Shown here in pieces: positions 18,430 through 35,424 of a stretch of DNA of 64,000 nt. A program made the translations under genes and the position numbers. Position 1 is the stretch's first letter; each line of letters begins with the position of its first letter. The stretch is taken from positions 593,432-657,431 of the forward strand of contig JBQQPY010000002.1 of assembly GCA_052258065.1 (NCBI GenBank), in the 5' to 3' direction. The stretch comes from Sodalis sp. (in: enterobacteria) (GTDB lineage: Bacteria > Pseudomonadota > Gammaproteobacteria > Enterobacterales > Enterobacteriaceae). A model generated the notes under the pieces. The model saw only the letters and a list, made by a program, of their open reading frames with translations. It was not told the origin of the DNA and did no database searches.

Positions 18430-19270
18430 ACAAACCTTGCTCAGCTATACGGGCTGTATCGGAGGGGGTAAAGCAAAGATAAATAAGAATTGCATCTTTA
18501 GCGTTAATAACTGCTTATACCATCAACTGTATCAGTAAATAAATTATCCACTATCAGGATATTCCATGCCAGGAGTTAAGGAGTCAGCATCTTTTCTACA
18601 TAATCAAGGAAGGCATATTATCCGGTCATTGCTCTATCGAGCAACATAGTTGCACTTAATCTAGATGGATGTAGACTAATGGTAAGTTTTATCATTTCCT
18701 CGTCGGCTCGTCGGATATCAATCCGGCATTATTGACTTTGTCTTCTAAAGCTCTTTAACTTACTAATATTTTTCGTTGTTGCTGTTTCGTCAATGAAAAT
18801 GCCCCTCTCTTGTAAAAACAAGACATTTCTTTAGACTATAATTTTCGTAAATGAATTACATCGTTGCGCTCTTACTGATTGGCATTTACCGTATTTTTAA
18901 CCGTTATCATGTGGCGGCGAAAATCGCGATAGAATTGTAAGACTCGCTTGAATTCTAAAAGTACTTTTCAGGGAGATCTGTATTTTAAATAAGGCTTAAG
19001 CACAAGATTCATCAATAAGCGCCAAGATAAAATTAGAATACGTATCAATTTTTAATCCACGATTCGGGTTTTCTCTAGGTCTAGGATGTAACTTCTGGTC
19101 TGACGGAATTGCTTACTCTAACACACCGAAACAGAAGAGTTTATTTTATATCTATGTGCCGCTTCGTCTTTAGATTTACCTGACTCAATCAATTTGATTA
19201 TTTACTATCTTCATTCCTCACTTTAATAAAATTCTATTTAGACCTTAGAAAAATTAGCCATAGCATAAGG
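18430..19270 (-). mobile_element. IS630-family type C, decayed, with its 5' terminus inside the cyoE 3' end
   Basis: Colinear with the copies at 5,228-6,165 and 63,082-63,975. The terminal sequence ..GACCTTAGAAAAATTAGCCATAGCATA supplies the last 9 codons and the stop of the cyoE reading frame. Confidence 0.7.
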
Positions 19271-20125
19271 CACCATAACGTCGACCGATATCATGACACT
19301 CAGCGAGGCAATAGCGACGATCGAAAAGATAAACAGCTTACGCACCCAGATCTTATCATTATTGGCAGACCTGTAACCCTGTAACGCCATGCCTAACCAC
19401 CAAGCGCTGACCGAGATGGCAACAATTAGGTATCTGCAGCCAGCATAACCGCCCAGCGTTAACATCAGCGTCGCCACCATAAACGCGATAATATACAAAG
19501 TAATATGGTGTTTAGTGATTAAAATGCCGCGTTTTATCGGCAAGACCGGAATTGATGCTGCCTGATAATCCTAGAAACGAAAGATGGCGATCGCATAAGA
19601 ATGTGGCATTTGCCATAGGCTAAAAATCAGCAGCAAAATTAACGCACCAGTATCGAATCAGTCGCTAACGGCACAGTATCCAATCACCGGCGGCGCGGCT
19701 CTGGATAGACTGCCAATAAGCGCACCGTAAACAGATTTTCGCTTCATATACAGGCTGTATAGGCCAACGTAGATAATAAATCCTATTATGGCCAGCCACA
19801 TGGCTAGCGGATTGGGCGCCAGATCCAGTATCGCAAAACCAGCAATACCCAGCACTGTAGCGTAAACCAGACTAACTTTTACAGAAATTAATCCTTTCAC
19901 CAAGACCCTGTTTTTGGTCCTTTCCATTTTCCAATCAATGTCACGATCAATATAGTTATTAAAAACGCAACCCGAGGCAACTACTAGGGATACACCGATC
20001 AGCATAGCGAGAAACAGGGAATAGTCGATCTGACCCTTTGCAGCTAATAAAAATCCCCTAATGACAAAAATGAGATTACCACCAATAATTCCTTGTTTTG
20101 TTACTTGTAGATATTGTTTAATCAT
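19238..20125 (-). pseudogene. cyoE: Heme O synthase (protoheme IX farnesyltransferase), inactivated
   Basis: ORFs 19658..20125 and 19238..19543 are in the same frame and colinear with E. coli CyoE. They are separated by in-frame TGA (19660..19658) and TAG (19573..19571). The sequence between them still reads [28 protein letters not shown]. The C-terminus is replaced by an IS end. Confidence 0.9.
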
Positions 20126-20140
20126 TACCTGTGCGCTCTA

Positions 20141-28905: not shown

Positions 28906-31266
28906 TTATTTTAATGCTTTTGGCTTCTCTTCTATACTAAAAGGAGAATTCTGCAGCGCTAAATTTAACACCTCGTCAATTCGCTGAACCGGATGAATAT
29001 CTAGGTCATTTATCACATTAGCCGGCATATCTTCCAGATCCTTCTTATTCTCAAAGGGAATCAGCACGGTTTTTATGCCGCCGCGGTGCGCTGCCAGTAA
29101 TTTTTCCTTCAAACCGCCGATAGGCAACACCTGACCGCGCAGAGTAATTTCGCCGGTCATCGCTACGTTGGCCTTAACAGCATTACTGGTCAGGCAGGAT
29201 ACCAGCGCCGTACACATCGCGATCCCGGCGCTCGGCCCGTCCTTCGGAGTCGCGCCTTCCGGCACATGCACATGAATATCGCGTTTTTCATAGAAGTCAG
29301 TATTGATCTCAAGCTTGTCCGCGCGTGCGCGCACTACAGTCAGCGCCGCCTGAATGGACTCCTGCATTACCTCTCCCAGTGAACCGGTATAGATCAGCTT
29401 GCCCTTGCCGGGCACGCAGGCGGTTTCGATGGTCAGCAGATCGCCGCCTACCTCCGTCCATGCTAAACCAGTTACCTGGCCAATACGGTTTTCTCCTTCC
29501 GCACGCCCATAATCGAAGCGCTGCACACCCAGGAAGTTCTTCAGATTGTCATCGCTGATGGTGATATGTTTAGCGCTCTTATTCATCAGCAAGGTTTTCA
29601 CCGACTTACGGCATAGTTTAGAAATCTCTCGTTCCAGGCTGCGCACCCCGGCTTCGCGGGTGTAATAGCGTATGATCCCCACGAGCGCGCTATCTTTTAC
29701 CGTCAACTCTCCTTTCTTCAGGGCATTGCGTTCGAGCTGCTTAGGCAACAGATGCTGCCGAGCAATGTTGAGTTTCTCCTCTTCTGTGTAACCCGATAGG
29801 CGGATTACTTCCATACGGTCGAGCAGCGGCGCCGGGATATTTATCGAGTTAGAGGTAGCAACAAACATCACATCAGAAAGATCATAATCTACTTCCAGGT
29901 AATGATCGTTGAACGCTACGTTCTGCTCGGGATCTAGCACCTCCAGCAGCGCCGACGCGGGATCTCCGCGCATATCTGAAGACATCTTGTCGATTTCATC
30001 AAGTAAGAATAGCGGGTTCTTCACGCCGACCTTTGATATCTTTTGGATAAGCTTACCTGGCATTGATCCGATATAAGTACGACGGTGCCCGCGAATTTCG
30101 GCTTCATCACGCACGCCACCTAGCGCTATACGTACATACTTCCGGCCGGTAGCCTTGGCGATGGATTGGCCGAGCGAGGTTTTCCCCACTCCGGGCGGGC
30201 CTACCAAGCATAGAATGGGCCCCTTTATTTTACTGACCCGGCTCTGTACCGCGAGATATTCTAGAATGCGGTCTTTGACGCGTTCAAGCCCATAATGATC
30301 TTTATCGAGAGTTTCCTGCGCCTTGACCAAGTCTTTTTTGACTTTGCTGCGCGCATGCCAAGGCACTGAAAGCATCCAGTCGATGTAACCGCGCACGACG
30401 GTCGCCTCAGCGGACATCGGCGACATCATCTTTAATTTCTGCAGTTCTGCCTCGGTCTTTTCCCGGGCTTCCTGCGGCATTTTTGCAGCCTCTATCTTGC
30501 GCTTCAGCGCTTCATTTTCATCCGGCGCGTCGTCCATCTCGCCTAGCTCTTTCTGAATCGCCTTCATCTGCTCGTTCAGATAGTACTCGCGTTGGCTCTT
30601 TTCCATCTGCTTTTTAACGCGATTGCGGATACGTTTCTCCACCTGCAGCAAGTCAATTTCGGATTCCATCATTGCCATTAGGTACTCTAGCCGCTCGGTC
30701 ACATTAACTATTTCCAGCACCGACTGCTTATCGGCCAACTTCAGCGTCATATGGGCAGCAATGGTGTCAGCCAGACGGGCGGCATCATCAATGCTGTTTA
30801 ACGAGGTCAATACTTCGGGAGGAATTTTCTTGTTCAGTTTGATATAGCCTTCAAACTGATTAATGGCGGTGCGGACCAATACTTCCTGCTCGCGCTCATC
30901 AACTGCCGGCTCGTTAAAATAGTCCGCCTCAGCGGTGAAGTGATCGCCGCTGTCTACAAGCTCCTTGATACGAGCGCGGGTTAGGCCTTCTACTAGCACT
31001 TTGACCGTGCCGTCAGGCAGTTTAAGCATCTGCAGAATAGACGATACTGTCCCGACTGAAAAAAGATCATTAATATCCGGCTCGTCAGTTGACGCTTCTT
31101 TTTGAGCTACCAACATGATTTTTTTATCATTTTCCATGGCTGCTTCAAGACACCGAATCGATTTTTCCCGGCCAACAAACAGCGGGATAACCATGTGCGG
31201 ATAGACCACCACATCGCGCAGAGGCAATATGGGAATTTCTATGCGTTCGGAATGCTCAACATTCAT
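28906..31266 (-). CDS. lon: ATP-dependent Lon protease
   Basis: 786 aa, colinear with E. coli Lon. Walker A motif GPPGVGKTS. Catalytic region ..[17 protein letters not shown].. with ..[21 protein letters not shown]... Confidence 0.98.
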
Positions 31267-31384: not shown

Positions 31385-31479
31385 GCAGCCGGTAATGAAA
31401 AAACGGGGGACAAAATCCTATGCTTGAACGCTCTCAATTGTCGTACAATATCTCCTAAAGAGCCTGTTGCGCTTGGTGC

Positions 31480-32724
31480 TTACCCGCAGATAAGCAACGG
31501 CTCCGATTGGCCGGCAATGACCGCTTCGTCAATCACCACTTTTTCTACGCTATCCTGGGAAGGCAAGTCGTACATGATCTCTAGCAGCACGCCTTCCACG
31601 ATAGAGCGCAAACCGCGTGCACCGGTTTTGCGTGCCATGGCTTTTTTGGCAATGGCGGTCAGCGCTTCGTCTCGGAATTCCAGCTCAACACCTTCTAAGT
31701 TAAATAACGTCTGATACTGTTTAGTCAACGCATTTTTCGGCTCGCGCAAAATCTGAATTAGCGCTTTTTCGCTTAATTCATTCAGCGCCGCTACGACTGG
31801 CAAACGACCGATAAATTCCGGAATAAGGCCGAACTTAATCAGGTCCTCTGGTTCGACTTGCGCGAGCAGTTCGCCTTCGGTGACTTTTTCTGAACTGCCT
31901 TTAACGGTGGCACTAAATCCGATACCGCGGTTAGTTTCGGTACGCTGCTCGATCACTTTATCCAGACCTGCAAAAGCTCCGCCGCAGATAAACAAGATTT
32001 TTGATGTATCCACCTGCAGGAATTCCTGCTGCGGATGCTTACGTCCGCCCTGGGGCGGCACCGCGGCTACAGTACCTTCTATTAATTTCAGTAGCGCTTG
32101 CTGAACCCCTTCACCGGAGACGTCCCGAGTAATAGAGGGGTTATCTGATTTACGGGAGATTTTATCGATCTCATCAATGTATACAATACCGCGCTGGACT
32201 TTTTGCACATCATAATCACATTTTTGCAACAGTTTCTGGATGATATTTTCAACATCCTCACCCACGTACCCGGCTTCGGTCAGAGTCGTAGCGTCGGCCA
32301 TAGCGAACGGCACATCAAGGAAGCGTGCTAACGTTTCCGCTAGCAAGGTTTTGCCGCTTCCGGTGGGCCCAATTAGTAAAATGTTGCTTTTACCCAGTTC
32401 AATGCCGTTATTAGTATCGCTATTGCGTAACCGCTTGTAGTGATTATACACCGCCACCGCGAGCACTTTTTTCGCTTTTTCTTGACCAATGACATAATCA
32501 TCTAGGTGGCGACGGATTTCATGAGGAGTCGACAACGCGCTAGGCTCACTGCTTGCCGCAACTTCCTTTATATCTTCGCGGATAATATCGTTGCATAAGT
32601 CAACGCATTCATTACAGACATACACCGATGGCCCAGCGATCAATTTCCGCACTTCATGCTGGCTTTTACCGCAGAAAGAGCAATACAACAGCTTTCCTGA
32701 ACCGTCTTTCCGCTTATCTGTCAT
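31480..32724 (-). CDS. clpX: ATP-dependent Clp protease ATP-binding subunit ClpX
   Basis: 414 aa. Zinc-binding N-terminus [30 protein letters not shown]. Walker A motif [11 protein letters not shown]. Colinear with E. coli ClpX and ~10 aa shorter at the C-terminus. Confidence 0.98.
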
Positions 32725-32867: not shown

Positions 32868-33488
32868 TTACGCGCGCTGGCTTAATACGGAATCTACTAA
32901 TCCATAGTCTACCGCCTCAGCTGGAGAGAGGAAACGATCACGTTCGGTATCCCGCTCTATTATTTCAAGAGCCTGGCCCGTATGTTTCGCCATTAATTCA
33001 TTCATCCTCGCTTTAACCTTCAGGATTTCCCGAGCGTGAATTTCAATGTCGGTAGCCTGACCCTGGAAGCCGCCTAGCGGCTGATGGATCATGACCCGCG
33101 AGTTGGGCAGGCAGAAACGTTTACCCATCGTGCCGGTGGCCAGCAAGAAAGCACCCATAGAGGCGGCTTGACCCATGCAGAACGTGCTGACATCCGGTTT
33201 AATGAACTGCATAGTGTCATATATTGACATCCCAGCGCTAATGACGCCCCCGGCGAGTTAATGTACAGGCAGATATCTTTTTCCGGATTTTCCGCTTCTA
33301 AAAATATCATCTGCGCAACGATCAAATTTGCCATATACTCTTCAACTTGACCAGTCATGAAGATAATGCGTTCTTTCAATAGGCGCGAAAAGATATCGTA
33401 TGAACGCTCTCCGCGTGAAGTCTGTTCTACTACCATCGGCACCAAGGCCATATGGGGGAAAGTTATCTTGTTTACTGCTGTATAACAT
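32868..33488 (-). pseudogene. clpP: ClpP protease subunit with two frame disruptions
   Basis: The SD-preceded ATG at 33488 (AGGAGacgataATG) opens [12 protein letters not shown], the propeptide. This is out of frame with [36 protein letters not shown] (ORF 33089..33451). That in turn is out of frame with ..[37 protein letters not shown] (ORF 32868..33230). Breaks lie at a C5 run (G5 at 33,454-33,458 on +) and a G5 run (C5 at 33,247-33,251 on +). Confidence 0.9.
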
Positions 33489-33789
33489 TATCGTCTCCTA
33501 GAAAACCCTCCAGCGCCTAGGTTTTAGATTTTACGTGAGATGCACCTGCATTGCCATGTTGCAAGATTTTGTCGGTTTACTGGAAAGGCCTCAACCTTTC
33601 TTTCTCTACCCTGCAATTTCCCTTGTTTTTCCCTAAAGGCAGCAGCGACATTCTTTTAGCGCTAGAGATTGCCGGATATTTCCGAGGCACTTACTTACTT
33701 TTAACACTGCTTGCTCGTTAAATATAGTACTGCCTATCACTATCAATCAGTATAAAAAGCTTACTAAATCATGCATTGTACTCGGCCGG

Positions 33790-34188: not shown

Positions 34189-35424
34189 CTAGTAGCGCTT
34201 CAACCCCCGCACTTCCAGTGCCATGTTATACATGTCGTCCATCAGCCGTTTATTCTTGCCGTAGAGCTTGGCAACTTCTTTCGGATCTTCGTAAGCTGAC
34301 GCTATTTCTTCAATTAGCGCGCTGACGAGGGTCTCGTCCGCTTTCAGTGCATGTTTGCGGACAACTTCGCCTAGCAGGAGGTCGATCTTGACGTGGCGCT
34401 TAGCCTGTTCTTTAAAGAGCTCGCGCGGCAATGGCAGCGCCTGTCTTTCTTTGCAACTGAAGCGCTGTGCTGCCTGGCGTTTCAAGACGTCGATTTTACC
34501 GTCGACCAGCGCCGCTGGAACGTGAATATCGTTCAGGCTAAGCAGACCGTCAATCACTTGATTTCTTATACAGCTGCGCACGGCGCTTTTTAGCTCACGC
34601 TCCATGTTTTTACGCACTGCGGCGCGCAAGCTCGCCAAAGTACCGTCGGCGATACCGAAACGTTTAATCAAGGCCTCATTCAGCTTCGGCATTTCACGGC
34701 GCTCAACTTTTTTGAGCTCTACGGCGAACAGCGCGGCTTTGCCTTTTAAATTTTCTGGGTAGTCGTCTTCCGGGAAACGGATGCTGATGTCAAAACTTTC
34801 GCCCGCTTTATGACCAATGATACCGTCTTCAAAACCGGGAATTATTTGGTTCTGGCCTATAGCCAACACAAAGTTGGTGACTTTTCCGGCCTCAAGCGCT
34901 TTGCCGTCAATAGTGCTACCGAAGTCGACCGTAACGCGGTCTTCCGCGCCGGCGACATCGGCTGTTTCTTTCCATTCGGCCTGTTGTTTGTACAGCGTTT
35001 CTAACATGCTATCAACATCAGTTTCCTTCACTTTCACCTGTGGTTTTTCAACTTCAATAATGTCTAGTCCCGTTAATTTAACTTCAGGATAAACTTCAAA
35101 TTCTACCGCATAGCTGAAATCTTTGCCGGTCTTGTATTCGTCTAGGATATAATTCGGCACGCCCACCGGATTTATTTTTTCCTGGATAATAGCGTCGATA
35201 AAGTGCCGCTGTACCAATTTGCTCAGCACCTCCTGACGGACACTGGCACCATAGCGCTGCGCAAGAATGTTCATAGGGACTTTCCCTTTGCGAAAGCCGG
35301 CTACGCGGACTTTTTTGGCGACGTTTACCAACTCGCTTTTCACTGCTTGCTCAATCGTATCGGCGGCAACGGTAATATTTATACGGCGCTCTAGGCCTTC
35401 GGTGTTCTCAACAGAAACTTGCAT
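34189..35424 (-). CDS. tig: Trigger factor, with the C-terminal ~25 residues lost to a frameshift
   Basis: 411 aa, colinear with E. coli Tig up to ..[10 protein letters not shown], then VRGLKRY*. The homologous tail (..[21 protein letters not shown]..) continues in another frame to TAA at 34,115-34,117. The break is at or next to a G5 run (C5 at 34,204-34,208 on +). Confidence 0.9.

Follow-up and report, generated by a model that had tools for sequence, protein, structure and literature searches.

ClpP of Escherichia coli (MEROPS family S14; structures 1TYF and 3MT6) has a 14-residue propeptide, MSYSGERDNFAPHM, and the mature chain in the PDB begins with ALVPMV. The protein carries a Ser-His-Asp triad and an INSPGG motif, and its gene is opened by an ATG behind a Shine-Dalgarno sequence and stands in the order tig-clpP-clpX-lon. 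ClpX also exists as an orphan without ClpP, for example as Mcx1 in yeast mitochondria. In Buchnera and Blochmannia, genes that are frameshifted at poly(A) tracts are reportedly rescued by transcriptional slippage, as found by Tamas et al. in 2008, and Watson and Warr are said to have described gene-fragmenting indel errors in long-read assemblies in 2019. According to the Kastor study (PMC12007338), genes in long-read assemblies of bacteria are pseudogenized by frameshifts that stem from indel errors.

The clpP locus analysed here lies in a window of 64,000 nt, by which we mean the whole stretch of DNA under study, from a 1.8-Mb genome assembled into four contigs (C1 to C4), and occupies C2:626,299-626,919. 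A PF00574 profile search of all four contigs returned this locus as the sole clpP and no second copy. The features of the locus and of its neighbors are as follows (window positions):

32868..33488, minus strand: clpP, 621 nt (624 nt in relatives), in three frame segments
33495..33499, minus strand: Shine-Dalgarno sequence AGGAG, 5' of ATG 33488, kept in relatives
33454..33458, minus strand: C5 run in the clpP propeptide, site of a 2-nt shortfall; relatives have GCA CCC CAT (Ala-Pro-His), the window CCCCCAT
33251..33451, minus strand: middle segment of clpP, 67 codons, ending YINSP, in a frame that differs from that of ATG 33488 and from that of the catalytic part
33247..33251, minus strand: G5 run in the INSPGG motif, site of a 1-nt shortfall; relatives have GGC GGG or GGC GGC
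32868..33245, minus strand: C-terminal segment of clpP, 125 codons plus stop, back in the frame of ATG 33488, ending SQRA
31480..32724, minus strand: clpX, 414 codons, with an IGF loop (RGIGFSATV) identical to that of relatives
28906..31266, minus strand: lon, intact, 786 codons, gap-free against a relative
34189..35424, minus strand: tig, with a 1-nt loss at about 34209 adjoining a G5 run, by which ~28 codons at its 3' end are thrown out of frame

The window locus shares the triad, the INSPGG motif, the gene order and the Shine-Dalgarno-preceded ATG with E. coli; unlike the E. coli gene, its frame is interrupted twice as deposited. The initial annotation had placed both interruptions at G/C runs, and the frame segments and the DNA alignment to two relatives agree with this. 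Translation from ATG 33488, behind AGGAG at 33499-33495, opens the propeptide, the sequence of which has diverged from that of E. coli. The C5 run then shifts the frame before the mature N-terminus, and homology resumes from ATG 33451, which corresponds to Met14 of E. coli ClpP. This ATG has no Shine-Dalgarno sequence, as had been pointed out, and ribosomes coming from ATG 33488 would pass it and read on for 48 codons. At the G5 run, the lack of 1 nt breaks the INSPG motif and returns the reading to the frame of ATG 33488. Owing to the two breaks, 67 codons are out of frame, and the deposited clpP is three segments instead of a single uninterrupted frame.

When the breaks were read through, the predicted protein aligned with residues 14-206 of E. 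coli ClpP (E 5e-110, PDB 3mt6/1tyf) with ~87% identity over the mature chain. The catalytic segment GQAASMG was preserved as annotated, and in the alignment to E. coli ClpP the whole triad was kept: Ser (TCT 33161-33159, in GQAASMG), His (in MIHQP) and Asp (in ERDTERDRF). The two pieces scored 201.6 and 71.3 bits with the PF00574 profile. The full-length match and the triad place the predicted product in the ClpP family (PF00574, MEROPS S14). The homologous frames contain neither a stop codon nor an insertion, and the shortfalls of 2 nt and 1 nt are the sole lesions.

We compared the clpP DNA to that of two relatives with an intact gene. Within the species set, the genome is closest to G005, a free-living Sodalis-like bacterium of 4.7 Mb (89% nucleotide identity in clpP), and a Sodalis MAG is about equally close; the gene is uninterrupted in both. 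The propeptide lesion was a loss of 2 nt, TTTGCACCCCATATG to TTTCCCCCATATG (relatives TTT GCA CCC CAT ATG), and the core lesion a loss of 1 nt, CCGGGCGGGGTC to CCGGGGGCGTC (relatives CCG GGC GGG GTC), which add up to -3 nt. Neither is the simple shortening of a run that is present in the relatives. The core site equals GGC GGC, as found in the relative G009, without the C that breaks up the run of G. On the plus strand, the propeptide site changed from GGGG T G C to GGGGG, which includes the loss of one interrupting base; the 2-nt loss also needs a substitution, or two separate losses of 1 nt.

A comparison of clpP with that of related symbionts had been suggested by the initial annotation, and clpP was intact, with no lesions, in every one that was found. 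A search of 5.8 billion proteins returned intact ClpP from many Sodalis-allied symbionts, and the related symbionts among the matches, all with an intact clpP, were Moranella (0.54 Mb), Doolittlea, Gullanella, Hoaglandella and Baumannia. Identity to Sodalis ClpP was 93-94%, with S. glossinidius closest (94%). All relatives examined had a continuous clpP frame, and the frameshift site was conserved in none of them. Exact look-ups found no other record with the same clpP ORFs (two, 120 aa), ClpX or Lon, and the protein searches no ClpP above 94% or ClpX above 93% identity besides the window's own. The metagenome and genome contigs that were searched gave no match to a DNA pattern specific to this lineage that spans the G5 site. 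The top match of the ClpP search, a protein of 316 aa (P0002), was discarded as an unrelated chimeric duplicate.

In our view, with a probability of roughly 78%, both frame breaks arose as consensus errors in an assembly of long reads that was poorly polished, and clpP is intact and functional. The initial annotation had named sequencing error as one option, and we favor it since missing-base frameshifts of the same class were found at the same density in genes that the cell cannot lose, and since clpP shows neither relaxed selection nor any other mark of decay. The assembler or the basecaller would have dropped bases at short G/C runs. In the core, a true CCG GGC GGC GTC (Pro-Gly-Gly-Val) would have lost the single C between its Gs, which leaves CCGGGGGCGTC; in the propeptide, a GCACCCC-like sequence would have collapsed to CCCCC.

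As a control, 218 E. coli K-12 proteins from annotated regions were used as tblastn queries on the genome. We kept 141 conserved, stop-free orthologues (133 kb), in which 17 isolated frameshifts were recorded in total. The orthologues were divided into essential and non-essential genes following the Keio and PEC sets for E. coli:

Essential: 101 genes, 97.8 kb, 12 frameshifts, 1 per 8.2 kb
Non-essential, conserved: 40 genes, 35.2 kb, 5 frameshifts, 1 per 7.0 kb

The essential genes with a frameshift were rplX, rpoB, murE, lpxD, proS, infB, glmM, gyrB, dnaN, dnaA, yidC and serS, and alaS was added by a reference-free scan. On contig C2, the breaks of gyrB, dnaN, proS, rpoB and alaS map to 90,685-90,692, 94,788, 216,886, 308,812 and 33,836, respectively. 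We know of no bacterium that can live with broken rpoB, gyrB, dnaN, infB and several broken tRNA synthetases. Indispensable genes are thus broken at a density equal to that of dispensable ones, and we concluded that the isolated frameshifts of this assembly are overwhelmingly artefacts. As the lesions do not avoid essential genes, their distribution is not the work of selection. A base was missing in 15 of the 17 events. The reference-free scan showed the same bias: among G/C runs of at least 5 between long open frames, the frame was restored by an extra base in 13 cases and by the removal of a base in 1.

The frameshift junctions were aligned to the DNA of the free-living relative. A lone C inside a G run was lost in gyrB (GG C GGGGGG to G8), dnaN (GG C GGG to G5) and proS (G C GGGG to G5), and alaS, infB and yidC, as well as cyoB in the window, each lost a single base that had interrupted a run of A or C. 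Contractions of runs were found in degQ (G6 to G5), clpB (G5 to G4), sspA (A5 to A4), murE (TT to T) and serS (CC to C), and fabF lacked 2 nt. The break in degQ lies within an 11-mer identical to that of clpP, CGCCGGGGGCG. Half of the events in essential genes were the loss of a run-interrupting base and not a plain shortening of a run. Under the standard slipped-strand model, such a loss is not expected as a product of replication slippage. The core lesion of clpP matches the lone-C-loss signature, given one additional assumed synonymous change. Both clpP sites belong to a vulnerable class of sequence, and we infer that both lesions fall into the error class of this assembly, and that the assembly was made from long reads. 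The likeness to the long-read indel errors described elsewhere extends to several points: the isolated frameshifts are mostly missing single bases at or beside short homopolymers within genes that are otherwise conserved, they strike essential genes to the same extent, and repeat copies (see below) differ mainly by gaps. The loss of an interrupting base in half of the essential-gene events and G/C homopolymers of 76-274 bases are differences from those errors.

Two errors within 621 nt would be improbable at a uniform rate. With 17 events in 133 kb, 0.08 events are expected in a stretch of this length and the probability of two or more is ~0.003; among the 141 control genes, not one carried a second frameshift. 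This excess over the background of the control genes speaks against consensus error and for a real loss of clpP. It is softened by regional clustering. The adjacent replication genes dnaA, dnaN and gyrB have 3 frameshifts in 6 kb (C2:90300-96400), infB, glmM and rlmE have 3 in 12 kb, and in the window cyoB, clpP (twice) and tig were all struck within 14 kb. We did not accept the uniform Poisson model as decisive against a double error, because the errors are concentrated in certain regions and vary with the surrounding sequence.

Two of the deletions in essential genes are larger. In dnaA, 8 nt (GCTCGGCC) are missing in the linker region, which could be a real deletion. Compared to the free-living relative, lpxD (C2:1644565) lacks 28 nt near the 3' end, and this deletion may also be real.

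The base-level signature also bears on a rescue by slippage, which the initial annotation had considered. Both frameshifts would then be real and bypassed by ribosomal or polymerase slippage, so that some full-length ClpP would be made. For this, tRNA-Pro would have to slip by +1 on CCC-C and tRNA-Gly by -1 on G-GGG-G, or else the polymerase would have to slip. If the P-site tRNA re-paired at either run, the residues of the relatives would be restored, minus one propeptide residue at the first run, and rescue by slippage is known at long poly(A) tracts of other insect symbionts. The genes of Buchnera and Blochmannia resemble clpP in that a conserved symbiont gene is broken at a homopolymer and both halves are apparently selected. 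They differ in that the runs here are G5 and C5 and not A9 or longer, far shorter than the A9-A10 tracts with documented rescue, and in that the breaks are common to no relative. Essential genes are also broken at sites without any slippery sequence, such as CGCTCG-TCC in rpoB and GGGT-ATC in murE, for which a technical cause is needed anyway. For this reason we rejected slippage rescue as the main explanation; it is not needed and highly improbable.

Several further observations point to an insufficiently polished long-read assembly. It contains giant homopolymers, namely G244 at C2:310289-310532 and C274, G76 and G88 at C2:413524-413797, 471825-471900 and 928214-928301, respectively. These are artefacts of the assembly; G244 splits rpoB between residues 212 and 213, as a pure insertion. 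A repeat of ~3.4 kb is common to the ends of all four contigs, and its copies differ by 160 gap openings versus 92 mismatches. The gaps include 109 of 1 nt and 27 of 2 nt (17%). The two smallest contigs, C3 and C4, are foldback inverted self-duplications (C3:1-6060 and C4:3127-9560) with 98.5-99.5% identity. Taken together, the giant homopolymers, the gap-rich repeat copies and the foldback contigs led us to infer poor polishing of long reads. The contig-end repeat was also considered as an rRNA operon, which was rejected as no Rfam match was obtained.

It is doubtful that only one of the two clpP lesions is real and the other an artefact. In the likelier version, the 2-nt deletion in the propeptide would be real, with initiation lowered or re-routed to Met14 (ATG 33451), and the break at the core G5 run would be an error. 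A start at ATG 33451 would yield Met plus the mature chain. The propeptide is poorly constrained: among Sodalis-allied symbionts it is highly variable in sequence and length, and their ClpP has 206 or 207 aa. Furthermore, the loss of 2 nt is atypical of the dominant 1-nt error class; such losses are rarer among the control errors, with parallels only in fabF and possibly dnaA. Errors of 2 nt do occur, as seen from their share of the gaps between the repeat copies, and the missing Shine-Dalgarno sequence at ATG 33451, together with the reading past it by ribosomes from 33488, argues against such a re-routed start.

If both deletions were real, clpP would be a very recent pseudogene. ClpX would then act solely as an unfoldase, and Lon and FtsH would carry proteolysis. 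We consider such a recent pseudogenisation unlikely, although several findings are in favor of it. The genome as a whole is, judging by its sequence, that of a truly decaying symbiont with many real pseudogenes, young ones included. ORFs of at least 100 aa cover only 43% of it. Only ~48 of 278 ORFs sampled from the free-living relative had a recognisable counterpart, many with several stops, and when genes of the relative were sampled at random, 5 of the ~38 orthologues with high identity carried 1-2 nonsense codons. In clpP itself, window-specific replacements (H to Y, Y to C and K to M) occur at otherwise conserved positions.

Selection on clpP and its neighbors was followed by aligning the codons of three sequences, those of the window, of G005 and of the Sodalis MAG, and placing the changes on the branches by parsimony. 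The following values were obtained:

lon, window branch: pN 0.019, pN/pS 0.073
clpX, window branch: pN 0.019, pN/pS 0.054
clpP, window branch: pN 0.0235 (10.5 replacements), pN/pS 0.115
tig, window branch: pN 0.099, pN/pS 0.37

Over essentially the whole branch, purifying selection acted on clpP as it did on lon and clpX, with no relaxation. With a pN equal to that of lon and clpX, no stops and the triad kept, clpP thus bears no further mark of decay. The equal pN and the lack of stops stand against a real loss. The same holds for the form of the core lesion, which is that of the lesions in gyrB, dnaN and proS that cannot be real, and for the similar frameshift density in essential and non-essential genes. 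The claim that ClpP was lost while ClpX was kept is therefore not supported: the essential genes share this class of lesion, and clpP is under purifying selection.

The partners of ClpXP were also considered. tblastn with E. coli K-12 queries recovered both sspB and smpB at full length. An intact tmRNA gene (C2:277532-277912) adjoins the intact smpB and encodes the tag ANDSQYEPAALAA, ending in ALAA. The partners that depend on ClpXP, including the IGF loop of ClpX, have not decayed, in a genome from which most genes are gone. The retention of sspB, of the ssrA tag, of smpB and of the IGF loop argues against a real loss of ClpP, as does the retention of clpP in all reduced relatives that were found. 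That ClpP was just lost in a 1.8-Mb symbiont, which still keeps ClpX with an intact docking loop, SspB and the ssrA tag, seems rather unlikely. If true, the genome would show ClpXP at the very start of its dismantling, with ClpX left as an orphan unfoldase, and relatives of 0.5 Mb keep ClpP. Mcx1 would be an analogue only in this case, and it differs from the situation in the window genome, where the IGF loop, on which ClpP docks, is unchanged, as is SspB, an adaptor specific to ClpXP.

Other parts of the proteolysis network have changed. In a tblastn search of the whole genome, clpA, clpS and aat, which form the ClpAP N-end-rule branch, were absent. The sole ClpA-like match in the genome is clpB, which is itself frameshifted at a G run (C2:1684908). 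The neighbors of clpP had been annotated as essentially intact, which applies to lon, and neither clpX nor tig is complete. The clpX gene lacks the last 10 codons, ending LLICG before a stop versus LLIYGKHEAQQASGE (window 31450-31482), and homology continues to about 31450. This early stop is probably real because the lesion is of the substitution type. The tig gene is plausibly under truly relaxed selection, whatever the status of its indel, since its pN/pS is far above that of lon, clpX and clpP. From the fast evolution of tig and the missing clpA, clpS and aat, we concluded that some erosion of the proteolysis network is real. These absences, as well as the relaxed and truncated tig, also count in favor of a real loss of clpP. 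We also noticed that hupB, ppiD, ampG and yajG are not at their usual places beside lon and tig.

Consensus error remains the reading that we prefer for the two breaks. Indispensable genes are affected, the lesions show the bias to missing bases and the homopolymer context, and the assembly gives independent signs of a poor consensus. Features of a genuine pseudogene, i.e., relaxed selection, a nonsense codon, an IS insertion or large deletion, or decayed partners, were not found for clpP. At face value, the breaks would suggest an unusual loss of ClpP in an insect symbiont. In conserved coding sequence of this assembly, a spurious frameshift occurs about every 8 kb, and calls of young pseudogenes that rest only on indels of 1-2 nt, such as clpP, tig and cyoB, are unreliable here. 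Such spurious frameshifts inflate the pseudogene counts by which the genome decay of this symbiont is described.

Two further genes were conspicuous. In cyoE (window 19268-20128), two in-frame stops are present, which confirms a true decay of the cyo operon. On the 36-kb contig C1, trpB, the gene of the tryptophan synthase beta chain, is frameshifted at a G6 run (C1:2065-2070), which most likely belongs to the same class of artefacts; if real, this frameshift would alter the nutritional role inferred for the symbiont.
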